Shown here piece after piece: positions 7,457 through 44,570 of a DNA stretch of 64,000 nt (positions within the stretch are counted from its first letter, which is position 1; each line of letters begins with the position of its first letter). The position numbers were made by a program, and so were the translations under genes. Under the pieces are notes generated by a model. It was given only the letters and a program-made list of their open reading frames with translations. It searched no databases and was not told where the DNA came from. The stretch comes from an uncultured bacterium (GTDB lineage: Bacteria; Krumholzibacteriota; Krumholzibacteriia; WVZY01), in contig CAYXEN010000007.1 in the NCBI GenBank assembly GCA_964464035.1, positions 868 through 64,867 of the forward strand, written 5' to 3'.

Positions 7457-7501
7457 ATTCTCGTCGAGGGCGATTGCTTGCTCCCAGGTCGCTCTTTCCC
7501 G

Positions 7502-22696: not shown

Positions 22697-22699
22697 GCG

Positions 22700-23383: not shown

Positions 23384-23910
23384 GGCTCGTTCGCGGCGAC
23401 ATCACGAAACAGGATACGGAAGCCGTCGTCAACGCCGCCAACTCCACGCTCATGGGAGGCGGCGGCGTGGACGGGGCGATCCATCGCGCGGGCGGGCCCG
23501 CGATTCTCGAGGAGTGCAAGGCGATAATAAGGGAGATCGGCTCCTGCCCGACGGGCGAAGCGGTCATCACCGGAGGCGGGAACCTCGAAGCCGAATATGT
23601 GATCCACACGGTCGGCCCCGTCTGGCGGGGAGGAAAGTCCGGGGAGGAAGAGCTCCTCGCCTCCGCCTACAGGAACTCGCTCGGCCTCGCCGCGGACAAG
23701 GGTATAAAGACGATCGCATTCCCTTCGATCAGCACCGGCGCCTACCGTTTCCCGATCGAAAAAGCGGCGGCGATCGCTCTTGCCGAGATCACCTCCTTCG
23801 TCCGCCAGCACCCTTTCGACGAAGTGAGATTCGTGCTCTTCTCCGAGGCGGATTTTGCAGCCTACAAGAAGGCGGCCGAGGATCTCGGCCTCGAAGCCGC
23901 GAGTGACTAA
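23347..23910 (+). CDS. macrodomain protein (O-acetyl-ADP-ribose deacetylase, YmdB/MacroD-like)
   Basis: VVNAANSTLMGGGGVDGAIHRAGG…FPSISTGAYRFP are the canonical macro motifs. SD GGAGGAG precedes the ATG. The gene overlaps the 3' end of the isochorismatase gene. Confidence 0.85.
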   Translation: MEANYKTGTTRLRLVRGDITKQDTEAVVNAANSTLMGGGGVDGAIHRAGGPAILEECKAIIREIGSCPTGEAVITGGGNLEAEYVIHTVGPVWRGGKSGEEELLASAYRNSLGLAADKGIKTIAFPSISTGAYRFPIEKAAAIALAEITSFVRQHPFDEVRFVLFSEADFAAYKKAAEDLGLEAASD

Positions 23911-24207
23911 CCAAGCAGCGGGTGGCGGCGATCTGGTTTCTTGCCTGCCTCGACATGCTCTCACGCTCCGGCGTCCTCGCGCGCCAATGTCTCAATCATA
24001 GCGCGCTGCGGAGTCGCGTTCGAGCATGTCGAGGCAGACTCGTCAATGGCCTGTCACTCGCTTCCTTGATCTTCGGAGACAATGGCAGCGGGTGGCGGCG
24101 ATTCGGGGCCCCCGCCGCGCGCAGCGCAAGCGAGCACGGTGGGGTGAGATCGCCGACAGGACCCGCGGCACTTCGGCAACGAGCCCAACGCAGCGGGTGG
24201 CGGCGAT
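23905..24207. repeat. three copies of an 18-nt direct repeat GCAGCGGGTGGCGGCGAT (23905..23922, 24085..24102, 24190..24207) in a convergent intergenic region
   Basis: Exact copies seen directly, with spacings of 180 and 105 nt, between the macrodomain gene stop and the helicase gene stop. Confidence 0.6.
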
Positions 24208-24231
24208 CCGGGCGGAGTGATGCGAGTGACA

Positions 24232-26739: not shown

Positions 26740-27713
26740 ACTCCCCGCGCGATCGCGTTCATTATGACCGCCATGGCCAGCAGGTCCATGCGGTTGTGGT
26801 AGATGACGCCGCGGAGCAGGCGCGCGTCGCCCGTCTCTACGAAATGATGATAGACGATCGGGACGTATCTCCCGGGGATATCGCCGGTCCGACCGGTTCC
26901 GGTCAAGTGCTCGCGGACGGTTTCGAGTCTGCAGTTGGGCAGCCGCCGCCCGAATACCCTTCTCGCCGGAAAGAGCAGATCCAGCGGAACGAATCCGAAA
27001 TCGAAATCGACCCTGTTGACAGCCATTCTCGTTTTTATGAACGGAATGTCGAAAGAATCGCCGTTATAGGTGACGAGGTATTTGAACCCGCGGAGCTTCG
27101 ATTGCAACGCGACTAGCATGGCCTCTTCCTCCGAGTAATCGCGCGCGAAGACCTGTTCCACCGCGAAACGCCCGTCCTTCATGTACATGAGACCGGCGAG
27201 AAACACATACGTGGAAGGCGACAACCCCGCCGTTTCGATGTCGAAGAAACAGAATTCACCCGCGGCGGCATGCCGATCCGGGCGGGGCGCCCTGTTCCCG
27301 AAGATCCTTTCCAGAGCGAGAGGATCCGACAGTACGAGCTCGAAACCTTTCGCCGTTTCTTCGGCTTCCGAGTCGAAAGTCGAAGCATCGGTCTCTATCA
27401 AGTAATACTCCCCTCCTTCGCCGTCCACCACGACGCCGGGGACGGCCGCTTCCAGCGACAGCGGTTCCGAGGAATCGCTCGCAAGAGTATCGAACAGATA
27501 GTCGAGGTCGCTTGCCCGTTGGTTCATCAGGTGTGATTCCTCGTCTTTCGAAGATTTGCGTTCGACGCGGACTCGGCTCTTCTCCCCCAACCTCTTCGCC
27601 CTCGCCTTGAGCATTTCGAGCTTCTTTTTGAGACTATGCTCGGTCATGATCCGGTGCAATCCGCTCGATCCCGCCCGCATCGCGATCCGCCGCAGGAAGG
27701 GAAAACGCGTCAA
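26736..27713 (-). CDS. MrfB/YprB-like RNase H-fold (DEDDh-type) exonuclease
   Basis: The FFDIETAGL Exo I motif and YNGDSFDIPF (Exo II) are present. Its stop overlaps the start of the downstream helicase gene, so the pair looks like an operon. Confidence 0.6.
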   Translation of the reverse strand: MTRFPFLRRIAMRAGSSGLHRIMTEHSLKKKLEMLKARAKRLGEKSRVRVERKSSKDEESHLMNQRASDLDYLFDTLASDSSEPLSLEAAVPGVVVDGEGGEYYLIETDASTFDSEAEETAKGFELVLSDPLALERIFGNRAPRPDRHAAAGEFCFFDIETAGLSPSTYVFLAGLMYMKDGRFAVEQVFARDYSEEEAMLVALQSKLRGFKYLVTYNGDSFDIPFIKTRMAVNRVDFDFGFVPLDLLFPARRVFGRRLPNCRLETVREHLTGTGRTGDIPGRYVPIVYHHFVETGDARLLRGVIYHNRMDLLAMAVIMNAIARGV

Positions 27714-27764
27714 GCAGGAGGATTCATCCTCTCATGTTACAGCATCGCAGGGCTGCGGACAAAC

Positions 27765-27791
27765 GAAAAGCCCCGCCTCGCCCGGCGGGGC
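27765..27791 (-). terminator. Rho-independent terminator downstream of the radical SAM gene (minus strand)
   Basis: Minus-strand RNA reads GCCCCGCC-GGGCGA-GGCGGGGC followed by UUUUCGUUUGU. Confidence 0.5.
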
Positions 27792-27824
27792 TCCCTTCGC
27801 CGCCTGATCCTCGGCGAACGATCG

Positions 27825-29462
27825 TTACTGCAAGGGCTTGGAATACTCCCGCTCGATGCGTTCCCTGTACAGGGGACCCGAATTGTACGCGCAGAAGGGA
27901 TATATCATTCCATCGGGAGCCGCGTAATGAATGACGCATCTCTTGAGCCGGTCTATGTTGTAGTTGTAGACATCCTGGAAATGCATTCCCAGGAGAATGA
28001 GAAAACGCCATTTCCTCTTCTTGCCCACGTGGCTCCTGCTCCGAACCAGCGTCGGGCCGAGGGCTCCGAGGAAATCCGCGAAAGTCATTCCCGGAGGGGC
28101 ATCCTCCTGCCTGAAGTATTTCCGCATTATCCTCATCGCCTGGGCGAAGTAGATGGGCTTCTGGAGGAAGCTCCGAAGCTTGCCCGCCAGGTGATCGAGT
28201 TCCACCATGGCCGCCTCCAGGTCGATGAACTGGGTTATGGGGTAAGCCTCGCCTTTCGAATTGACGATGACGTAACAGCCGATGCCGCAATCGGAATGGC
28301 AGCTTATCGTCATCATGCTCTTGCCGCTGAGCGCCTCCATCAGCTTGGAGAGCGGCGAAACGAAAGACAAAGGATACCAGTCGCGCATCGGGTGCGCGAT
28401 CCCGGTCTGCTCGTATACTCCATACGCCAGGTCGGACAGCGTGAAGCGCTGCCTGATCCTCTCTTCGTACGAGATCCTCCCCGTGAATGAGACCGGCTGG
28501 AAACTCACGCCGTTCACGACGTCGAGGTAGTCGATCGCGGTGGATATGATCTCCCCGATCTGGTCCTCGTTGACGCCCCGGGCGAGCGTAGGGACGAGAA
28601 CCACCCTGATCCCAGCTTCCTTGCAATGCTCGAGGCACTTCCTCTTCAAATCCCAGAGATCAGCCGCCCTCGTCACCTTGTACACGTCATCGCCGGTGCC
28701 GTCGAACTGGAGATAGATCGCGTCCATCCCCGCCGCCTTCGCCTTTCTAGCGAAATCGAGGCTCCTGCCCATAGTGATACCGTTGGTGGCGACGAGGACG
28801 TAAGGAAATCCGACTCTCTTCGCCTCGCGAACCGCCCAGAGAAAATCAGGATGAATGGTGGGCTCGCCTCCGGAGAACTGGATCGTCTTGCAACGCCGGG
28901 GCTTGATCGCCCTCACGTTCGCGAGCATCTCGGCGATCTGTTCGCGGCCGACCGTATACTCGTAACCTGCGACATTCGCATTCGCGAAGCAATAGGGACA
29001 GGTCAGGTTGCAACGATTGGTCAGGTCTATTATCGTCATGCAGGCGGTGCTCAGATGCATGTTGCATAGCCCGCAATCCTCGGGACAGCTCACGGCACTC
29101 TGGACTCTGGGATTCGAGATGCCGTCCATGTCCGCAAAGCTCCACTTCTCCATCTTCAGGTACATCCGCACGTCGCCGTAGAACAGGTCCTTGAACTCCC
29201 CGTGCTTCGGGCAACTCTTGCGCATGAAGACCTTGCCTTCTTCTTCGTAGAGAGTGGCCGTTACATGTTCCCTGCACTCGGGACATATGGACGGGACCCT
29301 CTTGGGAAGTCCCTTCGGAGTGTTCTGCGTCGGCACTTCGACCGAAGAGACAGGCGGAGAAGCGATGATGCCTCTTACCTTGTCCGCCAGTTTTCTCGCA
29401 ACACCAGGTATTTCCGCATGCACCTCACGCATTTTCGAGCCTCCTTCTCCCGCAGCATGCAC
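27825..29462 (-). CDS. radical SAM protein with N-terminal zinc ribbon and C-terminal Cys-rich auxiliary-cluster region (Tes/MJ0619-like architecture)
   Basis: CPECREH…CPKHG zinc ribbon, CNLTCPYC radical SAM cluster, GGEPT SAM-binding motif, and a downstream CHSDCGIGCY cluster-like motif. Confidence 0.7.
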   Translation of the reverse strand: MHAAGEGGSKMREVHAEIPGVARKLADKVRGIIASPPVSSVEVPTQNTPKGLPKRVPSICPECREHVTATLYEEEGKVFMRKSCPKHGEFKDLFYGDVRMYLKMEKWSFADMDGISNPRVQSAVSCPEDCGLCNMHLSTACMTIIDLTNRCNLTCPYCFANANVAGYEYTVGREQIAEMLANVRAIKPRRCKTIQFSGGEPTIHPDFLWAVREAKRVGFPYVLVATNGITMGRSLDFARKAKAAGMDAIYLQFDGTGDDVYKVTRAADLWDLKRKCLEHCKEAGIRVVLVPTLARGVNEDQIGEIISTAIDYLDVVNGVSFQPVSFTGRISYEERIRQRFTLSDLAYGVYEQTGIAHPMRDWYPLSFVSPLSKLMEALSGKSMMTISCHSDCGIGCYVIVNSKGEAYPITQFIDLEAAMVELDHLAGKLRSFLQKPIYFAQAMRIMRKYFRQEDAPPGMTFADFLGALGPTLVRSRSHVGKKRKWRFLILLGMHFQDVYNYNIDRLKRCVIHYAAPDGMIYPFCAYNSGPLYRERIEREYSKPLQ

Positions 29463-29755
29463 GCAAGCATGCTTGAAACGCGATCATGCGCAATTCACGC
29501 ACTCGACAAGAATCTCCCTTCCATGCAAGTTCGAATGTGAACAGAATCAAAGATAAAAAGCCAGTATTCAGAAAAATCGGTGCCGGGTAAGATGCAACGA
29601 CCATCCCCGATCAGTCGGGACATGGATATGTATATAAGATACTACTTTTTTATCTTCCCCTGTCAAGACCTCCGAGCGATTTTTCCTCGGCCCGGTCGTC
29701 GCGCGCGCCCATCGTATGAGCACACACATAACTCGAATCATCTCAAATAGTTATC

Positions 29756-29784
29756 TTGCATATCGGCGGCAACTGTGATAAAAT
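29756..29784 (+). promoter_or_regulatory. sigma70-like promoter (-35 TTGCAT, 17 nt spacer, TGn extended -10 TAAAAT) about 40 nt upstream of the M14 peptidase gene
   Basis: Hexamers seen directly in an AT-rich island inside otherwise GC-rich DNA. Confidence 0.4.
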
Positions 29785-29825
29785 GTAATTCAAACGTCGA
29801 TTCTTCAATCCAGGGAGGCTGAAAA

Positions 29826-32129
29826 GTGAGAACCCCAAGATTGCTTCTACTGATTACGTCGCTCGCCTTCACGATCTCGATCGCGTCGCCGGCCCGGCCG
29901 GCCGGTTCTTCGTATCTCGTCAGGATACCCTACAAGGCGCCGGCCCAGGTCCGGATGCTCGAGGAGAACGGCATCCGCGTCCTTCACGTATCCCCCCGCG
30001 GCTACATCGACGCCGCGGCCCGCGAGCAGGATCTCACTTTTCTCTTCTCACTCGGTTACGGCATCTCGGTCATTGCTTCTTCGGACATGTCGCTCGCTTC
30101 TCCCACCCTGGGCCCGAACCTCGGCCTCTACCACACTTATGCCGAAATGGAGAGCACCCTCACGGCTCTGGAATCTGCCCATCCCGGCCTGGCCAAGGTC
30201 GAAGTACTCGGCACGAGCCACGAGGGGCGCTTCGTTTACGGGCTCAAGATCTCGGACAACGTGTCCGTAGACGAGGGCGAGCCCGAGGTGTTGATCGTCG
30301 GGAACCATCACGCCAGGGAGCTCATGTCCCTCGAGATTCCGCTGAAACTCGCCCAGTACCTTCTCGCCAACTACGGCTCCGATTCCACCGTGACCTACCT
30401 GGTCGACAACCGCGAGATATTCATCGTTCCAAGCGCCAATCCCGACGGGCACGCCTACGTGGAAGCCAACCACTCGGGGGCCTGGTGGTCCTGGTGGCGC
30501 AAGAACCGGAGGGACAACGGTGATGGGACCTACGGCGTGGACCTGAACCGGAATTACGGCTACAACTGGGGGTACGACAACTTCGGATCTTCTCCATATA
30601 CTTCATCGGAAGTCTACCGCGGTCCCAGCGCGTTCTCCGAGCCCGAAACCCAGGCGATACGCGATCTGGCCCAAAACCATTCCTTCAAACTGGCTTTGTC
30701 GTACCACAGCTACGGGGAGTTGCTGCTCTACCCCTGGGGCTATGCCTTCGCATATACTCCCGACCATGCGCTCTTCCTCGCCCTGGCCGACTCGCTCACT
30801 TCCACGAACGGTTACTATCCCGGCAATCCCGCGATGGGTGCGATATACATAACCAACGGTGACACCGACGACTGGGCCTACGGTGACGACGTGAACAAGA
30901 ACTCGTTCCCGAGCTTCACGGTGGAGGTCAATTCGGATGCGGAAGGCGGTTTCGCCCCTCCCGACACCCTGATCGATCCGACTTTCAACCTGTTGTTGCC
31001 CATGAACATGCAGCTCATCGACCTGGCCGGCGACCCGACCCGCGTCCTGGGACCGCAAAGACCAGTCATGTATCCCGCAAGCGGTTCTTCTTACGGGGTG
31101 TACGTGCTGAGCTGGAGTCCCAGCCCCCCGTCCGATTCCAACCCCGCCGTGAGCTACGATCTGGTCGAGATAAGGAACCTCGGCGCGGCGGTCGATCACG
31201 CAGACACGCTGTCCGACTCGTGGTCCTTTGCCGGCTTCACCTCGGGAACGAGGGCCTACGAGGGCCAAGCGAGCTATTATTCGGGATCGGGGAACAATCT
31301 GTCCAACACGATGACCACCGCTCTCTTCATACCCGTCACCACTTCCACCGACACCCTTACATGCGAAGTGTGGTACGACATCGAATCGAACTACGATTAC
31401 GCCTACCTCGAGTGCAGTACCGACGGGGGGATCACGTGGGAGACGGTGCCCGGGAACATCACCACCAACTTCGATCCCTACGGTTCCAATCACGGAAACG
31501 GGATAACCGGGAGCAGCGGGGGATGGGTTCAGGCTTCATTCCCGCTCGATGCCTATCTTGGGCAGGACGTGCTGCTTCGATTCCACTACGTAACGGACGG
31601 CGCCGTATCGAATGAAGGCTTTTACGTCGATCTCATCGATCCCGTTCCGGTTTACGATACACTGGCGACGGTGGCGGCCGGTCTTGCCGATACGACTTTC
31701 GCCGTCATTCCCGATCAAGTCGGCACTTTCACTTACCGTGTGCGAGGCCGGGACGCCGAAGGCCAGCTCAGCACCTGGAGCATATCGCAATCCTTTACGG
31801 TGGACCAGTTGACGTCGGTGGCGACGCAGCCTGCGATGGCCAGCTGGCTCGGATCCAACTATCCCAATCCTTTCAATCCCGAGACCATGATCCCCTTCCG
31901 CGTGGGCGGCGCCGCGGGAGCCCGCGTGCACGTGCGCCTGGCTGTCTACACGCCCACCGGGCGGCTCGTGAAGATCCTCGAGAATCGATCGCTGGAGCCG
32001 GGATTGTATCGCTCTTCATGGGACGGAACCGACGAGTCGGGAAGAACCGCGGCAAGCGGCATCTACATTGCACGCCTAATCGTCGACGGCCGAAAGCAGT
32101 TCACGAGGAAACTCGTTCTCCTCAAGTAG
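29826..32129 (+). CDS. secreted M14-family zinc carboxypeptidase with C-terminal T9SS-type sorting domain
   Basis: GTG start with SD GGAGG and a signal peptide. M14 HxxE motif (GNHHARE) with downstream zinc-His context. The C-terminus SGIYIARLIVDGRKQFTRKLVLLK resembles Por_Secre_tail. Confidence 0.8.
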   Translation: MRTPRLLLLITSLAFTISIASPARPAGSSYLVRIPYKAPAQVRMLEENGIRVLHVSPRGYIDAAAREQDLTFLFSLGYGISVIASSDMSLASPTLGPNLGLYHTYAEMESTLTALESAHPGLAKVEVLGTSHEGRFVYGLKISDNVSVDEGEPEVLIVGNHHARELMSLEIPLKLAQYLLANYGSDSTVTYLVDNREIFIVPSANPDGHAYVEANHSGAWWSWWRKNRRDNGDGTYGVDLNRNYGYNWGYDNFGSSPYTSSEVYRGPSAFSEPETQAIRDLAQNHSFKLALSYHSYGELLLYPWGYAFAYTPDHALFLALADSLTSTNGYYPGNPAMGAIYITNGDTDDWAYGDDVNKNSFPSFTVEVNSDAEGGFAPPDTLIDPTFNLLLPMNMQLIDLAGDPTRVLGPQRPVMYPASGSSYGVYVLSWSPSPPSDSNPAVSYDLVEIRNLGAAVDHADTLSDSWSFAGFTSGTRAYEGQASYYSGSGNNLSNTMTTALFIPVTTSTDTLTCEVWYDIESNYDYAYLECSTDGGITWETVPGNITTNFDPYGSNHGNGITGSSGGWVQASFPLDAYLGQDVLLRFHYVTDGAVSNEGFYVDLIDPVPVYDTLATVAAGLADTTFAVIPDQVGTFTYRVRGRDAEGQLSTWSISQSFTVDQLTSVATQPAMASWLGSNYPNPFNPETMIPFRVGGAAGARVHVRLAVYTPTGRLVKILENRSLEPGLYRSSWDGTDESGRTAASGIYIARLIVDGRKQFTRKLVLLK

Positions 32130-32261
32130 CCTGCGCTCGTTCTCGGCACGAGGGCACGAGAATCCCCGAGGAGAGAATCACCAAAAAAACGCTTGCGCTC
32201 AGTGCGTGCCTGCCCGATTATTTGCCGAACCCGGCCTCCCGGGCTCTGGATGGGAAACGAC

Positions 32262-33647
32262 ATGAAGAAAACTCTGCTCTTTGCAATCCTTCTATCCGCC
32301 TTTCTTCTCTACCTGGGAAGAAACGAGTTGCTCGTGTCTTCGGGGCGGCGGGCTCCGAGCGCAGCCGCTACCGAAAAGAGCGCTCTCCTGCACCCGCCAT
32401 CCGGGCTCGACCGCGTACGCTCCGAGGCGGGAAGCCGCGGCATATTGCCGATCGAAGTCGACTCCATCATCGATATTCCCTCTCCCTCCCGGAGCATGAT
32501 CCTCCGCAAGGGAACCATCGGCAGGCGAAGCTCCTTTTTCGAGGAAATGCGGCGCTCCGGCGTGTCCCCCGCCGAAATCGAAAGGATCGTCCGCGCCACC
32601 CGCGGGACTTTCAACCTGAGGAAGGTCAGGCCCGGCCAGGAATATACCGTGTATTCATCATCGCCGGGATTCGTGGACAGCATCTATTACCGCATGGATC
32701 ACGAGAAATTCCTGCGCATAAAGAAGGTGGACGGGAGATTCACCGCAGTCGTGGACACGGTCGCCTACAGGATCATCTACAAGCTCACCCACGGCACGAT
32801 AAGGCAATCCCTCTTCGCCTCTCTTCAAAAGGAAGGGGCGGAGACCGAGCTCGCCGGCTCGCTGGCGCTCATCTTCGGTTGGGTCATAGACTTCTTCAAG
32901 GACATCCGAAGCGGCGACACGTATACGATATTGTACGAAAAGAAAGAATACGAAGACGGCTACTCGACCCTGGGGAGAATCATAGCCGCGAGAGTCGTCA
33001 CCAGGGGCAAGCCCTATTATGCGTTCCGTTTCAAGACCGGCAAGGGAAAGACCGGATATTACGATCTGGAAGGAAAGTCCCTGCAAAAAACCTTGTTGAG
33101 AGCGCCGCTCAAGTTCACCCGGATAACGTCGAGCTTCAGGTCGAAGAGGCTCCATCCCGTCACTCATACCTATCGCCCGCACCTGGGCGTGGACTACGCC
33201 GCTCCCTACGGGACCCCCGTGCACGCCACGGGGGACGGCACCGTGATGACGGCGACGCGGAATCGCGCGAACGGCAAGTACATAAAAATCCGCCACAACC
33301 GCTCCTACATCACCTACTACCTCCATCTTTCACGTTTCGCCAAGGGAATAGCCCGGGGGAAGCGCGTCCGGCAAGGCCAGGTGATAGGCTACGTCGGATC
33401 CACGGGACTGGCCACCGGGCCGCATCTCGATTACCGGATAAAGGTCAACGGCCGGTTCGTCAATCCACGCACTATAAGACTGCCTTCCAAGAGCCCGGTT
33501 CCAAGATCGGATCTCGCTCTTTTCCGCAAGACCAGGGACGCGGCTCTCCGCAGGTTCCTCGAGATAAGAGACGTGAAGAACGGCGCCACCGTCGTGGTCG
33601 GGAAGCCGTTCTATCCGGGATCGATGAGGATGGAGATTCCGTTCTAG
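32262..33647 (+). CDS. M23-family (LytM-type) metallopeptidase with N-terminal signal/TM segment
   Basis: HLGVDYAAP…HATGDG…STGLATGPHLDY gives HxxxD and HxH zinc-ligand motifs. The start is chosen at MKKTLLFAIL. Confidence 0.8.
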   Translation: MKKTLLFAILLSAFLLYLGRNELLVSSGRRAPSAAATEKSALLHPPSGLDRVRSEAGSRGILPIEVDSIIDIPSPSRSMILRKGTIGRRSSFFEEMRRSGVSPAEIERIVRATRGTFNLRKVRPGQEYTVYSSSPGFVDSIYYRMDHEKFLRIKKVDGRFTAVVDTVAYRIIYKLTHGTIRQSLFASLQKEGAETELAGSLALIFGWVIDFFKDIRSGDTYTILYEKKEYEDGYSTLGRIIAARVVTRGKPYYAFRFKTGKGKTGYYDLEGKSLQKTLLRAPLKFTRITSSFRSKRLHPVTHTYRPHLGVDYAAPYGTPVHATGDGTVMTATRNRANGKYIKIRHNRSYITYYLHLSRFAKGIARGKRVRQGQVIGYVGSTGLATGPHLDYRIKVNGRFVNPRTIRLPSKSPVPRSDLALFRKTRDAALRRFLEIRDVKNGATVVVGKPFYPGSMRMEIPF

Positions 33648-33676
33648 CCTTGAGGATGGAGCGGGCGGGGGCGAAG

Positions 33677-34723
33677 TCACCTCACGATGACGGAAACGGA
33701 TTCGGGAGCAAGCACTTCACCTATCACGGCGGCTCGAGCGTAACTCTTCAGGAGCTCTTCGAGGAGTTCGTCGCACTTTTCCGGCGGAGAAGATATCAGC
33801 AGTCCGCCCGAAGTCTGTGGATCGAAGAAGGCGTGAATCAACTCCTCCTCGACGCCGCTCCCCACCCGCAACTTGTCTTCGAGGAACATGCGGTTCGTTC
33901 CACCGCCGCCGGTCAGCATGCCGCGGCGCACGTACTCCAGGCAACTTCGCATCAGCGGAACCCGGGCCGCGTCCAGTGCGAGGCTCACGCCGCTGGCTTC
34001 GGCCATTTCCAGCGCGTGCCCGAGCAAACCGTAGCCTGTTATATCCGTGCAGGCGTGCGCACCCGATGCGATCATCGCCCTGGCGGCGTCGCGGTTCAAC
34101 GAGCTCATCACCTCGATGAGTTCCTCGTACTCCGACGACTCGAGCTTCTCCGCTTTCAGCGCGGTGGTAAGGACCCCGGAACCGAGCGGTTTGGTAAGAA
34201 TGAGCTTGTCTCCGACCTTTGCCGAAGAGTTCATGACGATCTTGTCCGGGTGCACGAACCCGGTGACGGACAGCCCGTACTTCAATTCCTTGTCTCTGAC
34301 CGTGTGTCCGCCGACTATCGCAACGTTCGCCTGCTCCGCAGCTGCGGCGCCGCCGCGTAGTATTTCGACCAGGATCTCGTTCTCCAGATCACCCTCGGGG
34401 AAGGCCGCTATGTTGAGCGCGGTGACGGGCTCCGCCCCCATCGCGTAGATATCGCTCAACGCATTGGCGGCGGCCACCCGGCCGAAATCGAAGGGATCGT
34501 CCACCACGGGCGGAAAGAAATCGACCGTCTGCACGAGCGCCAGATCCGGGGCGATACGATACACTCCGGCGTCGTCGGCAAGCCCGTGACCTACGAGAAG
34601 ATCAGGGTCCGGCCGCGTCTCGATCTTGTCCAGTATGCCGCGCAGGCCCGCCGCGCTGAATTTCGAAGCTCACCCGGCGCAGGAAGCATACTGTGTCAGT
34701 CTTATTTTCTTTCCTTCGTTCAT
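33677..34723 (-). CDS. selD: selenide, water dikinase (selenophosphate synthetase) SelD, selenoprotein form with in-frame UGA at the Cys17-equivalent position
   Basis: The ORF track starts at GTG 34564. Extending the same frame upstream gives MNEGKKIRLTQYASCAG-TGA-ASKFSAAGLRGILDKIETRPDPDLLVGHGLADDAGVYRIAP…, which matches the E. coli SelD N-terminus (IRLTQYSHGAGCGCK…DPNLLVG…DDAAVY). The ATG at 34723 has SD GGAG. Confidence 0.8.
34670..34672 (-). other. in-frame TGA read as selenocysteine in selD; a GC-rich hairpin immediately downstream (about 34625..34660) is a candidate bacterial SECIS
   Basis: The frame is continuous across the TGA. The conserved SelD N-terminal motif spans the codon. Confidence 0.7.
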
Positions 34724-34910
34724 ATCTCTTACTCCGGCCCGAGCAATTAGATCTAAAGGCCGACATCCGATCCGCCGATTTAGATACATGCATCGGAGTA
34801 TACTTGCGGCGGCGGGAAAACCGTCCCGCCCGCGACTCGTTTCCTAGATTAAGCCAGAAGGGAGGGCCGGGCAAGCGAATTGTACGGCGGCCGAGGCCCT
34901 TCCGGGATTT

Positions 34911-35414
34911 ATGATGGCCGACAACCTCGTCGAACCCAAACTGGTCGTAGTCGGCCTCGGGGACATGAGAATCTCGTCGGATCCCGGGGTGAAGTTGATA
35001 ACCTACGCCCTCGGCTCCTGCATCGGTATATCCGCCTATGATCCCAGGATCATCCTCGGAGGGCTCCTCCACTATCAGCTTCCCAACCCGGCGAAACAGC
35101 AAAGGTTCGAGAAGCGGCCGTTCTTGTACGGTTGCTACGCCATACCGACCTTCTTCAGGCGGCTCATCCAAAAGGGCGCCTGCAAGAGAAGGCTCATAGT
35201 GAAAATCGCCGGCGGGGCGGACAAGTACGACCTCGAGGGTATTCTGCGGGTCGGTGAAAAAAACATCGAAATCGCCAGGAAACTGCTCGGCAAGAACAAC
35301 ATCGCCATAGCGGCATCCGACACCGGAGGAGAACACGGAAGAACGATGAGCCTGGCCATAGAGGCGGGTGTCACCGAAATCACGACGCCATCAGGAGAAA
35401 CCAGGATCTTGTAA
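34911..35414 (+). CDS. cheD: chemoreceptor glutamine deamidase CheD
   Basis: The conserved ALGSCIG catalytic Cys region and overall CheD length (167 aa). Confidence 0.85.
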   Translation: MMADNLVEPKLVVVGLGDMRISSDPGVKLITYALGSCIGISAYDPRIILGGLLHYQLPNPAKQQRFEKRPFLYGCYAIPTFFRRLIQKGACKRRLIVKIAGGADKYDLEGILRVGEKNIEIARKLLGKNNIAIAASDTGGEHGRTMSLAIEAGVTEITTPSGETRIL

Positions 35415-35425
35415 GGGACGACGGC

Positions 35426-36274
35426 ATGACGGAGACAAAGAGTCTTCACCTCACCGATTCGCAGTTCGAGCTTTTCAAGGAACTCGTAAAGCGCGAATGC
35501 GGCATCGAGCTCAAGGAATCCAAACGCGCCGTTTTCGTGCATCGCCTGACCAAGAGAATCCGGGAAAAAGGGCTGAGCTCCTTTGCCGAGTATTACGACT
35601 ACGTGATGAACCCGCTTGCCGGAAAAATCGAGATGGATTACCTCCTGGACGCCATAACGACGAACAAGACTTCCTTCTTCCGTGAAGAAGACCACTTCAT
35701 CTTCATGCAAAACGTCATCCTTCCCATCATGGAGCAAAGACGGCTTGCGAACCCCAACTTTTTCCTTAGGATTTGGTGCGCCGGGTGCTCCTCCGGTGAA
35801 GAGGCGTATTCCATCGCCATGACGTTGATCGAGTATTTCGGGCGCTTCCGGCCCAACGAGGGAAGGATCCTGGCCACGGACCTCTCGGAAAAGTCGATCG
35901 CCAAGGCCCTGAGCGGAACCTACAGGCGGAAAGACATCTCCGGGCTATCGAGTGTCAGGCGCAGGGCTTTCTTCGAAAGAATCGAGGAGAACGGAGAAGT
36001 CTATTACAGCGTGAGCAAGTACGTCAGAAACCTGATTGAGTTCCACCGTTTCAATCTTGTCGGCCGCGCGTACCCGTTCCGTCACAAGTTCGATATCATC
36101 TTTTGCAGGAACGTTCTCATGTTTCTCGACATCGAATCGAAAAAGAAGATCATACAGAGGTTCTACGACAATCTCAAAGTGGGCGGCTACTTCATAACGG
36201 GAATGGCGGAAAACTATTCCCGCCTGCATCCCGGCTTCACCCAGCTGAAGAACTCGATCTTCTTGAAAGAATAG
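35426..36274 (+). CDS. cheR: chemotaxis protein methyltransferase CheR
   Basis: CheR N-terminal all-alpha domain plus the SAM-methyltransferase motif IWCAGCSSGEEAYSIA. Confidence 0.85.
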   Translation: MTETKSLHLTDSQFELFKELVKRECGIELKESKRAVFVHRLTKRIREKGLSSFAEYYDYVMNPLAGKIEMDYLLDAITTNKTSFFREEDHFIFMQNVILPIMEQRRLANPNFFLRIWCAGCSSGEEAYSIAMTLIEYFGRFRPNEGRILATDLSEKSIAKALSGTYRRKDISGLSSVRRRAFFERIEENGEVYYSVSKYVRNLIEFHRFNLVGRAYPFRHKFDIIFCRNVLMFLDIESKKKIIQRFYDNLKVGGYFITGMAENYSRLHPGFTQLKNSIFLKE

Positions 36275-36300
36275 AGTTCTCTTCCGGGTGCGCTTGCCCG

Positions 36301-36549
36301 CTATTTCTTGACTATGAAATACCTGTAGACTCCCCCCTCCTCGACCCAGGATTTGATCTCGTTCCCCGTGCTCTTGCACCACGCAGGCATGTCGAACTCT
36401 ATCGCCGGATCGTCCGCGATGACTTCGAGAATGCGTCCCCGATCGAGCTTGCGCATGGCCTCGGAAGTCATGATTATGGGCGCGGGACAGAACAATCCCC
36501 TCGCGTCCACGACCAGATCCGGCTTGGCTTTGGATGATTCACCCTGCAT
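36301..36549 (-). CDS. TusA-like sulfurtransferase-fold protein (CPxP motif)
   Basis: An 82-aa protein with LVVDARGLFCPAPII. The long ORF-track N-terminal extension is Arg/Ser-rich junk. Confidence 0.7.
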   Translation of the reverse strand: MQGESSKAKPDLVVDARGLFCPAPIIMTSEAMRKLDRGRILEVIADDPAIEFDMPAWCKSTGNEIKSWVEEGGVYRYFIVKK

Positions 36550-36599
36550 TTCGAGTCCTTCCCGGGAGTCGGTTCGCAGATGCGGTATTCCGCGGCGAA

Positions 36600-37037
36600 T
36601 CAGGAGTCCGCTCGATCGTCCAGATCGAGAAGGTTGAGACCGGTGACCTGATCCCGGCTCCGCTCGAGCACGCCGGGAAGCACCCTGACGCACACTTCGA
36701 GGGTTACGCTGACCGTGGCCTCGAACAGGTGCCCCGCCTTGGCGTCGTGACGCCCGTCGGCGAGAACCGCGTGGAGGTGCAGCAAGGCTTTTCCCTCGAA
36801 CCGGGAAATCGTTCCGCTCAGCGAGGCCACTTCGAAGCTTCCGTCCAGGCGCTCCTTGTGGTACTCCTTCGAGTCGGGATCGAAATAGCCGAGCGTCGCG
36901 TCCCTGACGGCGCCGATGCCCGATATCATTCCCGCCTCTATATTCCTGCTTTCAACGAATTCGGTCAATTCGCCCACGACTTCTTCGCCTATCTCGAGTT
37001 TCAGAACGAAATCTTCCCCCAACCTCGTGTATTGCAT
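36600..37037 (-). CDS. PPC (DUF296) domain protein
   Basis: An internal start with SD GGAGGA gives a 145-aa protein. The upstream part of the ORF-track entry is low-complexity. Confidence 0.5.
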   Translation of the reverse strand: MQYTRLGEDFVLKLEIGEEVVGELTEFVESRNIEAGMISGIGAVRDATLGYFDPDSKEYHKERLDGSFEVASLSGTISRFEGKALLHLHAVLADGRHDAKAGHLFEATVSVTLEVCVRVLPGVLERSRDQVTGLNLLDLDDRADS

Positions 37038-37096
37038 GAATCCTCCTTTCCTTGTCCTCACCTGCGCGGCGGGGCTCCCGGCACCCCGGCACGACG

Positions 37097-39685
37097 TCAT
37101 TCGGCGCGAGGTCCTGCCACGGCGATCACGTGATCGTCTATCGGGAGGTACTTCGCGGCCGCCGCCCGCACTTGCTCGACTGTCACGCTCTTCACGGATC
37201 GTATGAAATCGTCGTCGAAAGCATACCCGAATCCCCTGTGCTCGTTGAGCCCCATGTAATAGGCCTGGTTCATGCGCGAAAGCCTGCGCATCAGCATTCT
37301 TCCCCTGAAGCCGTTCTTGTAGGACTCCACGTCGCCGGCGCTCGCTTTTTCCCTCACTTCCTTCATTATTTCGACGAGCCCTTTCTCGGCCTCGCTTCTT
37401 TTTTCCGGGGAAGTGCCGATGTAGACACTCATCCTGGCGTAGTCTTTCCCGAAATACACGGACGATCCCACGCTGTAGGCCAGCCCCCTCCGCTCCCGGA
37501 GAACTTCCCCCAATCTCCGTGACAGAACGCCGTTCAACACGGTTACTGCCGCCGCGTCCCGAGGGGAAACGGGCGGAAGGACGTTCCCCAGGAAAATCGA
37601 GGTCTGGGAGGCTTCGACGTCGACGCTCGCCCTCACGACCCCCTTGACGGGGATCGGCGTGGAATACGTGCACGGCGATTCGTCTCGCGGCGAGCCGGAG
37701 AAGAACTCGTCGATTCTCTTGCGGAGGCTCTTGGGATCCACGTTACTCGCAACCGTCAGGATCATGTTTGCCGGCGTGAAGTACCTGGCATGGAATCTCT
37801 TCACGTCGTCCAGTGTTATCGCGTCCAAGGTCCCCTCGTCCCCGAGGACACCGTTTTGGAAAGGATGCCCCTTGAAAAGGTTCGCGAAGAACAACTTCTT
37901 CGCGGCTTGCATCGGCTTGCGTGACTCGCTCGCCAGGACCGCTTTCATCTCGGACTTGGCCTCGGCGAGAGTCTTCTCTTGCAAGGCCGGATGCAGAATG
38001 ATCTCACTCAAGAGCTCCAGCCCCCTGGCATAGTACTTGTCGATGGTCTGGAAGCGGATGAAGGAGTAATCCTCCTTCGTGCGGTAATCGTCATAAGGAA
38101 TGTACGGGTTGTCAGTACAAACCACTTCGGCGCCGATCCGGTCGAGTTCCTTCTCGAGAGTCTTCTCGTCCATGCCCTCGGTCCCCTTCATGATCATCCT
38201 TGAGAGCAATTCCGTTATTCCATGCTTGCCAGGCGGCTCGCACGCCAGGCGGTTATCGAAAAGAACGTGGACGGCGAACACCCTCGAATCCTCGTTGTAT
38301 TTCGTGATCACGCGCAACCCGTTCTCGGTAGTCCAATCCTCGTATCGCGAACCGGTCTTCTCCTTTCCGCCGGAGTTCCGGCGCTCGGACGGCACCACCG
38401 CCGCCACCGCATACCGGGGTTCCCCGAGATACCGCTTCGCTACTCTTTCGACGTCCCTCGCACCGACCCTCTCGAGGTTCCCGAGCTTGCCGGCCAGGAA
38501 ATCACGCCCGCCCAAAGCCAGTTCGTCGGCCTTGAACATGCCGTAATAATGATACTTCTCCTCGTTGTAGATCTCGTTCGTCACGAGCGATATCTTGACT
38601 CCCTCGAGAAGGTCCCGGTCACACTTCCGGGACGCGGTTTCCTCGAGGGCTTTCACAGCTCGTTCCACCAGCCTGTCGACGTCATGGGACGACGCCGTCA
38701 ATTGCACCAAGGCCCGCGAGAAGCCGCGATGATGTTCGTAGTCGACCCGGCATGAAACGACACCCAGATCCGGCTCCTCCTTCAAGCTCCGGTTGAGGAC
38801 GGACCCCGAGCGGTTCATCATTTCGCAAAGCACCTGGAAAGCATAGAAATCGTCGGACAGCATCGCAGGCGCGTCGAAGGCGATATCGACGTACGTGTAA
38901 TCCCCTTCGGCGGCGCGGACGTGCACGGCCCCTCCCGGGTTGGGCGGTGCGGGTGGATTCCCGGGAGCGGGGACTCCCGGGGAAGACTTTCCGAAGCAGT
39001 CCTCCAGGACTCTCTTGATCCCGTTCCCGTCGAAATCGCCTACGATTATCGCCCGCATGTTGGACGGCGTGTAGTACCTGCGATAGTAATCGAGTATCCT
39101 CTCGCGCGGAATTGTCTCTATGACGTTCTTCTCACCCAGCACGCTCATCGCGTACGGAGTGCCGGCGTAGAAGACTCCGTCCATGAACTTGCCCCTCAGG
39201 TATTCGGGCGTCGAGGTATCCTTGTTGATCTCCTCGGTCACGACCTTTCTCTCCTTGGCCACCTCTTCGTCGGGCAGGATCGAGTGCAAGAGCATGTCGG
39301 CCTGGATCTCGCATGCCTTTTCGTACTCGTCCGACGGGACCAGGAACACGAAGGCGGTGTAGTCCTTGCGCGTGAAGGCGTTGAAATAGCCTCCGATGGA
39401 GCGCATCTCTTCGGTGAGTTTCTCACGCGACCTGGAGGCTGTTCCGTCGAAGAGAAGATGTTCGAGCATGTGCGAGACCCCGTTCACGTCCGGGGTCTCC
39501 AACCAGCTCCCCGCCGCTATGGTGATCACCCCGGCCACCATGGGGCTGGAATGGCTTTCGCCCAGGAGCACCTGCATCCCGTTCGAGAGCGTGTAATTCT
39601 CGAAGCTCATGGCGAGGCCGACGCATGGAAATGAAAAAGCGGCCGCCAGCCACGCCAGAACCGTCACTTTCATGAATGCTCGCAC
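37097..39685 (-). CDS. secreted M16-family (pitrilysin/insulinase-like) zinc peptidase, tandem active plus inactive modules
   Basis: Signal peptide followed by the inverted zinc motif HMLEH with a downstream Glu. The second half has the M16 fold without HxxEH. Length is 862 aa. Confidence 0.8.
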   Translation of the reverse strand: MRAFMKVTVLAWLAAAFSFPCVGLAMSFENYTLSNGMQVLLGESHSSPMVAGVITIAAGSWLETPDVNGVSHMLEHLLFDGTASRSREKLTEEMRSIGGYFNAFTRKDYTAFVFLVPSDEYEKACEIQADMLLHSILPDEEVAKERKVVTEEINKDTSTPEYLRGKFMDGVFYAGTPYAMSVLGEKNVIETIPRERILDYYRRYYTPSNMRAIIVGDFDGNGIKRVLEDCFGKSSPGVPAPGNPPAPPNPGGAVHVRAAEGDYTYVDIAFDAPAMLSDDFYAFQVLCEMMNRSGSVLNRSLKEEPDLGVVSCRVDYEHHRGFSRALVQLTASSHDVDRLVERAVKALEETASRKCDRDLLEGVKISLVTNEIYNEEKYHYYGMFKADELALGGRDFLAGKLGNLERVGARDVERVAKRYLGEPRYAVAAVVPSERRNSGGKEKTGSRYEDWTTENGLRVITKYNEDSRVFAVHVLFDNRLACEPPGKHGITELLSRMIMKGTEGMDEKTLEKELDRIGAEVVCTDNPYIPYDDYRTKEDYSFIRFQTIDKYYARGLELLSEIILHPALQEKTLAEAKSEMKAVLASESRKPMQAAKKLFFANLFKGHPFQNGVLGDEGTLDAITLDDVKRFHARYFTPANMILTVASNVDPKSLRKRIDEFFSGSPRDESPCTYSTPIPVKGVVRASVDVEASQTSIFLGNVLPPVSPRDAAAVTVLNGVLSRRLGEVLRERRGLAYSVGSSVYFGKDYARMSVYIGTSPEKRSEAEKGLVEIMKEVREKASAGDVESYKNGFRGRMLMRRLSRMNQAYYMGLNEHRGFGYAFDDDFIRSVKSVTVEQVRAAAAKYLPIDDHVIAVAGPRAE

Positions 39686-39713
39686 TTCTCCCTCCTTTAT
39701 CAGTTCCCGTTTT

Positions 39714-40862
39714 TCAAAACCGCGTCCCGTTCCCCATTATCTCGGCCACGAATCGCAGTCGCAGCATCAGGCTGCAGGGCTTTCCGAAAAAGGCCGAAAC
39801 CCAGTACGAAGGCGCAAGGACCACGTTCCACAAGACCTTCATCCGGCCCGCGAGCCTGTCGCTCTCGAGCATGTAGAACTTGAAGCCTCTTCTGGGCTCG
39901 ACCGAAGCGTCCCCCCGCTCCATACGGAGGCGCATCCCCGGGGTGGCGAGTGCAGGCACGGAATCGAAAGGGCGACCCATGCCCAGCGAGGAAAGAGCCT
40001 GGGCCAGGGAACGCTTGAAAGTTCCGGCCAGCTTCATGCGCCGGGTCCTTCCCAGCACGTAATCCCAGTCCATCCGCCCTTCTCCGCCCGCCGTCAGCAA
40101 CCCTATATCGACCAGCCGCGCCAGGTCCCGGAAGCGGGACATTCTCCACTCCAGGACCGAGTGGATCAACATGTCCTCGCGCCGCGGGACCGGAATCGAA
40201 CCCGGCGATCCCGGGCGGGACGGATCGCCCCACGATTCCTCGCGCTGCGTCGCGGGGCCGTAATCGAAAAGCCTGAACCTGAATCTCACGCTCGTTCCGT
40301 CTTCCTTTCGCAGGATGCAGGGAGCGACGTGGTGATGATATCTGACCACCTCACCGGGCGACTTCAGCACCGGTTCGTAGAGCGGCCGGGAGTAACCGAG
40401 CTTGGCCGTCGCCTTCACGACGCGGTCCCATTCCTCTTCCTTGACCATGAATTCGAGGCGCCGCATGCCGGCCGCCGCGCCGTTCCCGAAAGCGGCCCTT
40501 GCGAGCGCCGCCTCGCCGAAGAGCATGAACGCGACTCCCGCACCGGCCAGGGCTTCTCCCACGATTTCGGCCTCTTCGAGGAACCGCCGGTTCGACCGGC
40601 TCACTTCGTCGCCCTGGATCCGCAGCTTCTCCATGGTCAATCTCGAGAGCGGGGGTTCGAGGGACAACTTGGACAAGGAATCCAGGATCAGGGGCGCAAG
40701 ACCGTGCTCGGCGCAGCAATCCAGCAACTCCTTCTCGAAACCGCTTTCCACGTGCGCCGGAATCCCGGGAGGAGGGCTCTCATCCGCTTTCACGAAATGG
40801 GATATCGTTGCAAGGACGAAATCGCTCGCTCGCATCCTGGCGGTCTCCCCTGCTTTCCTCAA
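39714..40862 (-). CDS. PF14907-like (uncharacterised nucleotidyltransferase family) protein, possibly degenerate
   Basis: Weak but colinear similarity to the N-terminal domain of the 4609..6420 product. The canonical DxD is not obvious. Confidence 0.4.
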   Translation of the reverse strand: MRKAGETARMRASDFVLATISHFVKADESPPPGIPAHVESGFEKELLDCCAEHGLAPLILDSLSKLSLEPPLSRLTMEKLRIQGDEVSRSNRRFLEEAEIVGEALAGAGVAFMLFGEAALARAAFGNGAAAGMRRLEFMVKEEEWDRVVKATAKLGYSRPLYEPVLKSPGEVVRYHHHVAPCILRKEDGTSVRFRFRLFDYGPATQREESWGDPSRPGSPGSIPVPRREDMLIHSVLEWRMSRFRDLARLVDIGLLTAGGEGRMDWDYVLGRTRRMKLAGTFKRSLAQALSSLGMGRPFDSVPALATPGMRLRMERGDASVEPRRGFKFYMLESDRLAGRMKVLWNVVLAPSYWVSAFFGKPCSLMLRLRFVAEIMGNGTRF

Positions 40863-42664
40863 CCGATCCTTTTCTCTTGCTCCATGTATTGAAGCTCATA
40901 GAGCTTCTTGTACAACCCGCCCCGCCTCATGAGCTCGCCGTGGGTGCCCTGCTCGACTATCCTGCCCTTGTGCATGACTATTATCCTGTCAACGTACCTT
41001 ATCGTGGACAAACGATGGGCGATGATCAGCGAGGTTCTTCCCTTCATGAATCTCTTGAGGGCTTCCTGTATCAGGTATTCCGTCTCGGTATCGACGCTGG
41101 AAGTCGCTTCATCGAGTACGAGGATCTTTGGATCATAGACCAGGGCCCGGGCGAAGGCAAGCAATTGCCTTTGTCCGACGGACAGCATCGCTCCCCTCTC
41201 CCCCACCTGTTCGGCGTAGCGCGCGGGAAGCCTTTCTATGAACTTGTCCGCGTTGATGTGCCTCGAGACTTCCGCGATGCGCTCGGCTCCGATGCTCCGA
41301 TCGCCGAGGTCGATATTGTACGCGATGTCACCGGAGAAGAGAAAAACGTCCTGGAGAACCACCGCCACGTACCGCCTCAGGTCCTTCTGCGCGTACTCTC
41401 TTATATCGCATCCGTCTACGTTGATCGATCCCTCGTTCGGATCGTAGAAGCGCGAGAGCAGGTTCATCAGCGTGGTCTTCCCCGCTCCCGTGTATCCCAC
41501 GACCGCCACCCTCTCCCCTTCGTCCACCGTGAAGCTCACGTCATGGAGAACCGGCTCGCCGGGATTGTAAGCGAAACTCACGCGGTCGAAAACGATCCTG
41601 CCGGGCCCGCTCGGGATTCTCCTCGGGCGGGGCGGGTCCTGCACGCGAGGCTCCGTGTCCAGCAGGTCGAAGATCCGCTCGGAAGATGCCATGGCGGACT
41701 GGAGGATGTTGTACTTCTCGCTCAGGTCGCTTATGGGACGGTAGAAGCGCTGGGCATACTGGATGAAAGCAACGAGGGCTCCGATGGTAAGCGCACCGTT
41801 CAAGACGCCTCCGCCCCCGAACCAGAGGATCATGGCTATGGCGGTCGAACTGAGAATCTCTATGGCGGGATAGAACACGGCATAGGCGAGGATCGACTGG
41901 ATGTGGGCTTCGTACAATCTCCTGTTCTTGCGTTCAAACTTCTTCATCTGTTGCTCCTGCCGGTTGAACACCTGCACGACCGACATGCCGGTTATGTTCT
42001 CCTGCAGGAACGCATTGACCGAGGCCAGCCGTTTGCGGACGTTGCGATACGAGCTTCGGACTTTCGCCCTGAACACCAAGGCGGTGACCAGGAGCAGAGG
42101 AAGAACCAGGAAACTGACGAGCGCCAGTTTGAGGTTCAAGTAACACAACACCACGACGATTCCCACAAGAGTGAAGACGTCGAGAAAGATGCTGACCACG
42201 CCCGAGGTGAACAATTCATTGAGTACTTCTATATCGTTGGTGAGCCTCGTCATCAATCTCCCCACCGGGTTCTTGTCGAAAAAAGCGACGTCCAAGCGCT
42301 GCAAGTGCCTGAAAACCTGCATCCTCAAATCGAACATGACCCTCTGCCCTATGTAGCTCATGATGTAGATCTGCACGTAGCGGAATCCGAAACCAAGGAC
42401 GAGGACGACCAGGAACACGCCGGAGATCTCGAGCAATCCGGCGTAGCGCGAGCTCACGCTCGTTTCCACGCCGGAAGTGAAGTACCTGTCGACGGCGATC
42501 TTCACGAGCAGCGGGGGAGCGAGCTGGAACAGGGAAACGAAGAGAAGAAGCGCGACGCTCAAGATCACGAGCCCCTTGTAGGGCTTCAAGTATCCGAGGA
42601 GCCTCCGCATCAGGATGCTGTCGTAGGACTTGTTCAACACCTCGTCTTCATGGAAGTATTCCAT
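40859..42664 (-). CDS. ABC transporter permease/ATP-binding protein (type I exporter half-transporter)
   Basis: Six-TM exporter domain, Walker A GYTGAGKTT, signature LSVGQRQ and Walker B ILVLDEATS. The start at MEYFHE overlaps the stop of the upstream ABC gene (ATGA). Confidence 0.8.
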   Translation of the reverse strand: MEYFHEDEVLNKSYDSILMRRLLGYLKPYKGLVILSVALLLFVSLFQLAPPLLVKIAVDRYFTSGVETSVSSRYAGLLEISGVFLVVLVLGFGFRYVQIYIMSYIGQRVMFDLRMQVFRHLQRLDVAFFDKNPVGRLMTRLTNDIEVLNELFTSGVVSIFLDVFTLVGIVVVLCYLNLKLALVSFLVLPLLLVTALVFRAKVRSSYRNVRKRLASVNAFLQENITGMSVVQVFNRQEQQMKKFERKNRRLYEAHIQSILAYAVFYPAIEILSSTAIAMILWFGGGGVLNGALTIGALVAFIQYAQRFYRPISDLSEKYNILQSAMASSERIFDLLDTEPRVQDPPRPRRIPSGPGRIVFDRVSFAYNPGEPVLHDVSFTVDEGERVAVVGYTGAGKTTLMNLLSRFYDPNEGSINVDGCDIREYAQKDLRRYVAVVLQDVFLFSGDIAYNIDLGDRSIGAERIAEVSRHINADKFIERLPARYAEQVGERGAMLSVGQRQLLAFARALVYDPKILVLDEATSSVDTETEYLIQEALKRFMKGRTSLIIAHRLSTIRYVDRIIVMHKGRIVEQGTHGELMRRGGLYKKLYELQYMEQEKRIG

Positions 42665-44436: not shown

Positions 44437-44570
44437 CGTTTCGTGCTTCGTCCTTTCATGGAGCGGGGAGTTTCGATTCGACCTGTTTTCCTTGACTGGA
44501 CGGGGACAAACAGGCTTAAATATAGACAATAACGACGTAACTGGCAAACGGCGTTTCACATGGGAGAATC

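Follow-up and report, generated by a model that had tools for sequence, protein, structure and literature searches.

Among bacterial selenoproteins, selenophosphate synthetase (selenide, water dikinase), the product of selD, is the second most widespread, and enzymes of this kind that carry selenocysteine (Sec) have long been known (PMC1794560, PMC13188914). In prokaryotes, a Sec codon is found in 19% of the genes for SelD, "always in the same position", and genes for selenoproteins have been called "usually misannotated" (PMC4561486). Here we describe the selD gene found in a 64,000-nucleotide (nt) stretch of DNA, hereafter the window, from an uncultured bacterium of the Krumholzibacteriota (assembly GCA_964464035.1, contig CAYXEN010000007.1, positions 868 to 64,867 of the forward strand). 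Codon 18 of the gene is an in-frame UGA, and the gene very probably encodes a Sec-containing SelD with a functional selenocysteine insertion sequence (SECIS) element.

Bacterial SelD enzymes of the Sec type, for example that of Aquifex aeolicus (2ZOD/2YYE; PMC1794560, PMC4561486), share with the one described here the TIGR00476 family, the single UGA in the N-terminal G-U-x-x-K loop, a SECIS hairpin placed within the coding sequence (CDS) just after the UGA, and the truncation of the N-terminus in annotation (PMC4561486). The present SelD is set apart from them by an identity of 57-62% to its nearest database relatives and by a clade-specific hairpin sequence. With Escherichia coli SelD, a Cys17 form (3U0O), it shares an alignment over residues 5-338, Lys20, and the AIRS and AIRS_C domains. 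The two differ in the loop, which reads G-A-G-C17-G-C19-K in E. coli and S-C15-A-G-U18-A-S-K here, so that Sec replaces Cys17, the Cys at +2 is missing and a Cys at -3 creates a CxxU motif. The motif (Cys15, Sec18) was considered as an unusual feature of this protein and rejected as such, being common to 67 of 128 Sec-type relatives. Since SelD with Sec is so widespread and has been known for so long, its presence here is a correct but ordinary finding and changes no open question. What is particular to this case is the uncultured lineage, the clade-specific hairpin and a conserved neighbour of the TusA family.

The selD reading frame

The open reading frame (ORF) listed for this locus (33677..34564, minus strand) starts at a GTG and encodes 295 amino acids (aa). 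The preliminary description of this DNA had extended it upstream, in frame, across a single TGA, and the coordinates and sequence of that extension are correct: the complete gene has 348 codons followed by a TGA stop, with only one internal stop (Table 1). Its translation reads MNEGKKIRLTQYASCAG up to the in-frame TGA and ASKFSAAGLRGILDKIETRPDPDLLVGHGLADDAGVY... after it. Once the internal stop had been replaced by Cys for profile scoring, the 348-aa protein matched the NCBIfam model TIGR00476 (selD) with 382.7 bits against a cutoff of 125, over profile positions 1-309 of 311, and also matched NF002098 (337.6 bits, cutoff 299). PF00586 and PF02769, the AIRS and AIRS_C domains, were found on the truncated database call of the gene, P0001.

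The protein was aligned to 3U0O and to A. aeolicus SelD 2YYE (also 2ZOD) over residues 5-343, as the preliminary description had recommended for characterised SelD proteins of the Sec type. The alignment to 3U0O begins at residue 5 (E=4.9e-73) and places IRLTQYASCAG-U-ASK over IRLTQYSHGAGCGCK of the E. coli enzyme, whose stretch opposite the loop is IRLTQYSHGAG-C-GCK; therefore, the UGA falls on Cys17 and Lys21 on Lys20. The equivalent of Lys20 is present in all relatives, with the caveat that this Lys was part of the search motif used to find the loci. An alignment of 28 SelD sequences has 65 invariant columns, among them D50, D51, D68, D91 and D227 in the numbering used here. Both the predicted identity of the protein as SelD and the position of the UGA on the Cys17 column are far above chance.

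All eight closest relatives have an ATG at, or at most two codons from, the start of selD, and a common N-terminal peptide, e.g. MN(E/K)GKKIRLTQYASCAG. The GTG at 34564 cannot be the true start of the gene, because it falls within the invariant DDAGVY motif.

Table 1. Features of the selD locus, its hairpin, the second candidate selenoprotein gene and the neighbouring genes, in window coordinates.
Feature	Coordinates	Strand	Basis or position
Full-length selD CDS, Sec at codon 18	33677..34723	minus	Translation; TIGR00476; alignment to 3U0O and 2YYE
selD start codon, ATG	34721..34723	minus	Sequence; N-termini of relatives
GGAG, putative Shine-Dalgarno-like sequence	34732..34735	minus	8 nt before the ATG, read from sequence
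In-frame UGA, Sec18, on E. coli SelD Cys17	34670..34672	minus	Sequence; translation; alignment
Lys21 codon AAA, on E. coli Lys20, G-U/C-x-x-K loop	34661..34663	minus	Alignment
GTG, naive start, Val54 in invariant DDAGVY motif	34562..34564	minus	ORF list; translation; alignment
selD stop codon, TGA	33677..33679	minus	Sequence; translation
Candidate SECIS upper stem-loop, GCGCGG-CGGGC-CUGCGC	34640..34656	minus	RNAalifold on 9 clade sequences; covariation; bSECIS criteria
Alternative register-shifted fold, UUCAG/CUGGA lower stem, loop GGCCUG	34629..34660	minus	Minimum free energy -12.2 kcal/mol
Second candidate selenoprotein gene, UshA-like PCGU	57006..58403	minus	Scan for TGA-interrupted frames with coding-like GC3
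In-frame TGA of the UshA-like PCGU gene	58269..58271	minus	Cys column of homologues
TusA-family gene, CPAP motif	36301..36549	minus	TusA model 63 bits (cutoff 78); YedF 48 bits (cutoff 79)
cheD	34911..35414	plus	Between the TusA-family gene and selD
cheR	35426..36274	plus	Between the TusA-family gene and selD

Conservation of the UGA and of the peptide before it

Among 80 related selD loci from GTDB species genomes, the Sec codon is TGA in 59 and TGC or TGT in 10. The addition of 80 metagenome loci brought these figures to 123 TGA against 14 Cys codons (137 loci with an identifiable motif), and in the final set, which includes the closest relatives, TGA is found in 128 of 142 related selD genes and Cys codons in the others. 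The TGA-bearing genes belong, by their record titles, to Planctomycetota, Acidobacteriota, Chloroflexota, Bacillota, Desulfobacterota and others. Together with the TIGR00476 score and the alignment to 3U0O, this bears out the claim of the preliminary description that selD is itself a selenoprotein gene with UGA at the Cys17 position.

Within the clade of the present gene, composed of selD itself and its eight closest relatives, TGA is present in nine of nine. The eight relatives have 57-62% protein identity to the present SelD, a common gene neighbourhood and a near-identical peptide upstream of the UGA. Identity to named genomes is about 50% or less, the best named database matches being from Latescibacterota, Chitinivibrionia and Krumholzibacteria, and a scan of metagenomes for nearer relatives gave none above 56% identity among the matches listed. 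An independent assembly from JGI sample 3300023444 (L083) is 99.58% identical (12 mismatches over 2833 nt) and has the same TGA and the same N-terminus. As TGA is one base away from the Cys codons, a sequencing or assembly error in a TGC or TGT might be thought of; with the TGA in that second assembly, and also in eight of the eight closest relatives from different samples, such an error deserves next to no weight.

The 13 codons 5' of the UGA, compared with those of the eight relatives, show 53 synonymous and 10 non-synonymous differences, and because of this excess the predicted peptide upstream of the UGA is, by this measure, translated and under purifying selection. The preliminary description had allowed for a separate gene of the N-terminal domain, with the downstream GTG as the true start of selD; the N-terminal peptide is instead in frame with the rest of the protein, and the selection just described acts upon it.

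These results bear on the simplest alternative, in which translation really ends at the UGA, with selD either a pseudogene or expressed in truncated form from GTG 34564 or from some other start 3' of the UGA, and with the 17-codon ORF upstream a separate leader peptide or meaningless. ORF finders and public databases do report a truncated selD, UGA is the commonest stop codon here, and the machinery for Sec was not found in the window (see below). However, a product started at the GTG would be without the Sec/Cys17-Lys20 loop and without the invariant DDAG motif, the 35 codons that separate the UGA from the GTG agree with the SelD profile, starting at its position 1, and the codons upstream of the UGA, besides being under purifying selection, correspond to the N-terminus of SelD in Cys-type homologues (RLTQWASCAGCAAK). 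Moreover, the TGA is kept at the exact codon in the great majority of relatives across phyla, unlike what is seen in a decaying pseudogene. A genuine stop is hence scarcely credible, and the comparisons support selD as a normal, presumably functional gene for selenophosphate synthetase, whose product would itself be a selenoprotein.

The public protein database holds this selD solely as the truncated 285-aa call P0001, and nearly all its close relatives have likewise been entered as N-terminally truncated calls of 285-329 aa, in agreement with the earlier claim that naive ORF calling removes the N-terminus of the protein.

The hairpin downstream of the UGA

A GC-rich palindromic stretch, GCGCGGCGGGCCUGCGC, begins 13 nt 3' of the UGA. 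An ungapped alignment of the UGA and the following 45 nt from selD and its eight relatives was folded by RNAalifold, which returned precisely the candidate hairpin of Table 1, with 6 bp and a 5-nt loop, 17 nt long and starting 13 nt after the UGA. All 54 of 54 cells of its pairs across the nine sequences are standard pairs; when the partners were slid by 1-3 columns as a control, merely 18-61% of the cells were paired. The innermost pair (G34651/C34645 in the window) is G-C in five sequences and A-U in four, two further pairs have single wobble changes, and the covariation score observed was reached in 3 of 500 shuffles. In the innermost pair, the 5' base opens a variable codon (Ala GCG, Thr ACG or Lys AAG) and the 3' base opens a Leu codon, which is CUG where the partner is G and UUG where it is A, in nine of nine sequences. 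Since the change between CUG and UUG is synonymous, the protein does not dictate this correlation. L164 and L169, whose N-termini (P0014 and P0011) are near-identical, differ at the innermost pair, which suggests that more than one event lies behind the swap.

Bacterial SECIS (bSECIS) elements have been described as having a stem of 4-16 bp that carries an apical loop of 3-9 nt, at least one G among the first two bases of the loop, as a rule with G or U after it, a spacing of 16-37 nt between UGA and loop, and a minimum free energy of -7.5 kcal/mol or lower (PMC13188914). The hairpin falls within all four of these limits. The apical loop, CGGGC, has its GGG invariant in nine of nine clade members and lies 19 nt from the UGA, and the free energy, -7.7 kcal/mol for the hairpin alone and -9.1 in a 48-nt context, just passes the limit. 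With the bSECIS consensus model (bSECISearch) it shares the 5-nt loop, the 6-bp stem and, in the loop, a G at position 2 with a further G after it; it differs from that model in a stem near the minimum size and in an alternative fold that is predicted to be more stable, and its binding of SelB is putative.

The wider set of genes was examined with a search for the best hairpin of bSECIS geometry. Behind the UGA of Sec-type relatives its median is -11.25 kcal/mol, compared with -6.75 kcal/mol at three control sites of these genes (Mann-Whitney p=3e-21) and with -8.3 kcal/mol behind the Cys codon of Cys-type homologues (p=9e-4, n=14). The sequence of the hairpin is specific to the clade, GCGCRR-NGGGN-YUGCGC over the codons S-A-x-G-L-R, whereas in other Sec-selD clades the hairpin lies over G-P-G-D-L, or some 14 nt further 3' over L-A-Q-V-L-R. 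When the segment from UGA+13 to UGA+50 was inspected in loci L001-L163, hairpins were seen at apparently two positions according to clade, some genes having both. The first type, located over G-P-G-D-L, S-P-A-V-L-D or S-A-x-G-L-R codons, has its 5' end 13-15 nt from the UGA and its loop 17-21 nt 3' of the UGA; the second, GGCGCAG-GUN-CUGCGCC, covers the L-A-Q-V-L-R codons and has its loop 34 nt 3'.

Several observations weigh against a SECIS function of this hairpin or against its exact form. The fold of 76 nt is no more stable than those of shuffled sequences (z = +1.32), and control sites in selD reach -13.5 and -14.0 kcal/mol in the same hairpin search; by these calculations, the stability of the hairpin by itself would be not exceptional for such a GC-rich gene. 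The covariation amounts to one doubly changed pair and two wobbles in just nine sequences, with a shuffle control that is suggestive; judged on that alignment, it is real but thin. No Rfam family matched, either over the window at the gathering threshold or over 34560..34700 at E values up to 10. This miss reflects a curated library and not a defining property of SECIS elements, which in bacteria are heterogeneous and lie in some cases outside the consensus (PMC13188914).

In addition, the register-shifted fold of Table 1 dominates the computed ensemble, where the probability of the conserved hairpin is 0.07-0.37. The shifted fold is not conserved in the relatives, in seven of eight of which the conserved hairpin has a probability of 0.9-1.0 in the 48-nt context. 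An extended lower stem around the conserved hairpin (AUUCA/CUGGA) was also considered and was dropped, as it evaluates at -0.5 kcal/mol. In the alternative fold the apical loop is 21 nt from the UGA. Because the apical loop is G-rich and lies within the permitted distance in either fold, the presence of a SECIS-type stem-loop is a robust conclusion, and its exact base pairing in this organism a tentative one. Thus, of the earlier expectation of a GC-rich, palindromic, SECIS-like region 3' of the UGA, the region itself and its conserved and covarying hairpin of bSECIS geometry stand, but no exceptional stability of the 76-nt fold accompanies them. The absence of any stable stem-loop, which the preliminary description had weighed against Sec in combination with a lack of Sec machinery genes, is not what was found.

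Evidence on Sec decoding in the window

The window was scanned for reading frames interrupted by TGA that have a coding-like GC content at third codon positions (GC3); its overall GC content is 58.5%, and GC3 is about 0.73-0.82 in real genes. The scan yielded a second candidate selenoprotein gene, UshA-like PCGU, with a lipoprotein-type signal peptide, a 5'-nucleotidase/UshA-like domain and C-terminal multihaem CXXCH sites. Around its TGA the gene reads ...YYQPCG-U-HANATGGFARRATL..., and full-length homologues (466-488 aa) read ...YYRPCGC[N/S]xNSAGGLxRRxAL..., which places the TGA on the second Cys of PCGC. The product matches NF041198, UshA_like_PCGU "UshA-like (seleno)protein", with 267.5 bits (E=2e-79), slightly below the 275-bit cutoff, and the "UshA-like protein, NF041198, CxU" is listed among the known selenoprotein families (PMC13188914). 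A hairpin 3' of this TGA has -23.4 kcal/mol (z = -1.0). Also this gene is present in the public database only as a truncated call (P0121, 403 aa), and most of its close homologues there are N-terminally truncated calls.

The same scan flagged 21773..23383 on the plus strand (TGA 22694), with radical-SAM-like and isochorismatase-like genes, and 6404..8761 on the minus strand (TGA 7504), with a polysaccharide deacetylase and a glycosyltransferase. Both look like ordinary adjacent genes that share a frame, not selenoproteins.

With two UGAs located on Cys columns of two unrelated families within 64 kb, there is good independent evidence, at the level of sequence, that the organism decodes Sec, as the preliminary description had proposed. 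The components of the machinery were also sought: ARAGORN found no tRNA gene, and so no tRNA(Sec)/selC, in the window, and SelA, SelB and SelU domains were found in none of about 60 window ORFs scanned with Pfam and NCBIfam models. Confined as they are to the 64-kb window, these absences speak against Sec decoding to a limited degree, and they would also fit another alternative, namely that the UGA is read through with insertion of Trp or Cys by a near-cognate tRNA, or that UGA has been reassigned throughout the lineage, the insertion of Sec being for its part a prediction. As to reassignment, TGA ends 25 of the 36 domain-supported genes in the window, selD included, compared with TAG in 9 and TAA in 2; being the usual stop, UGA is not reassigned in this genome. 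As to read-through in general, the UGA is situated exactly on the catalytic Cys column, where the sole alternatives among homologues are Cys codons, it is followed by the conserved, covarying hairpin of bSECIS geometry, and a second UGA in the window falls on the Cys column of a selenoprotein family modelled by NCBI. Read-through without Sec is consequently quite improbable, and insertion of Sec at codon 18 is the reading that we retain.

Gene neighbourhood

In the eight closest relatives the genes are ordered PCC - TusA - SelD and are convergent with M23 and M14 peptidase genes. A TusA-family gene of about 75-88 aa lies directly upstream of the Sec-type selD in eight of eight (L081 9503-9733, L082 385-618, L164 2546-2773, L165 2656-2883, L166 2565-2798, L167 2578-2805, L168 2458-2724 and L169 2539-2766). 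The TusA-family gene of the window fits neither of the curated equivalogs, TusA and YedF, since it scores below the cutoffs of both (Table 1). Here cheD and cheR are interposed between it and selD, an arrangement that seems to stem from a local insertion or rearrangement peculiar to this genome.

A long conserved gene order is apparent between about 22700..44559 of the window and 1..20969 of L081 (GCA_964654695.1), whose SelD is 57% identical, with shared blocks of 65-72% identity by blastn. It comprises two ABC exporters, NTP_transf_5, an M16 peptidase, PCC, TusA, SelD and the convergent M23 and M14 peptidases, and continues with an HMPTM-type radical SAM protein, an RNase_H_2-like protein, a DEAD/MrfA-type helicase and an isochorismatase. 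A promoter scan of the intergenic region between selD and cheD found no sigma-70-like site; two terminator-like matches in that scan were treated as chance, being on the opposite strand and inside the gene.

What supplies SelD with selenium in vivo has so far been elucidated incompletely (PMC13188914). From the gene adjacency and the sub-threshold matches to TusA and YedF, it might be speculated that the TusA-family protein is a dedicated selenium carrier, which would pass selenium in persulfide- or perselenide-bound form to SelD at its C15-x-x-U18 loop, an idea that we regard as rather unlikely. If it were true, a TusA-SelD selenium relay would exist in this lineage, distinct from the YedE/YedF system.

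Proposed mechanism and implications

The locus would follow the general mechanism of Sec insertion in bacteria (PMC1794560, PMC13188914). Translation of selD would begin at ATG 34723 and, with the UGA in the A site, SelB carrying Sec-tRNA(Sec) and GTP would recognise the stem-loop 34640..34656, so that the UGA of codon 18 would be decoded and Sec inserted at residue 18. In the flexible, glycine-rich N-terminal loop S-C-A-G-U-A-S-K, Sec18 would take the role of E. coli Cys17 beside Lys21, and the remainder of the protein would adopt the standard PurM-like AIRS/AIRS_C fold. As the enzyme would make selenophosphate for the synthesis of Sec, it would need a little of its own product in order to be made. 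From the gene and its relatives we infer Sec insertion, binding of SelB, enzyme activity and the existence of selA, selB and selC in the genome.

The chief value of the finding is in annotation. The correct annotation of selD is a selenoprotein of 348 aa, not the public fragment of 285-295 aa, and dozens of its relatives need the same re-annotation. Together, selD and the UshA-like PCGU gene mark this uncultured organism as one that uses selenocysteine.

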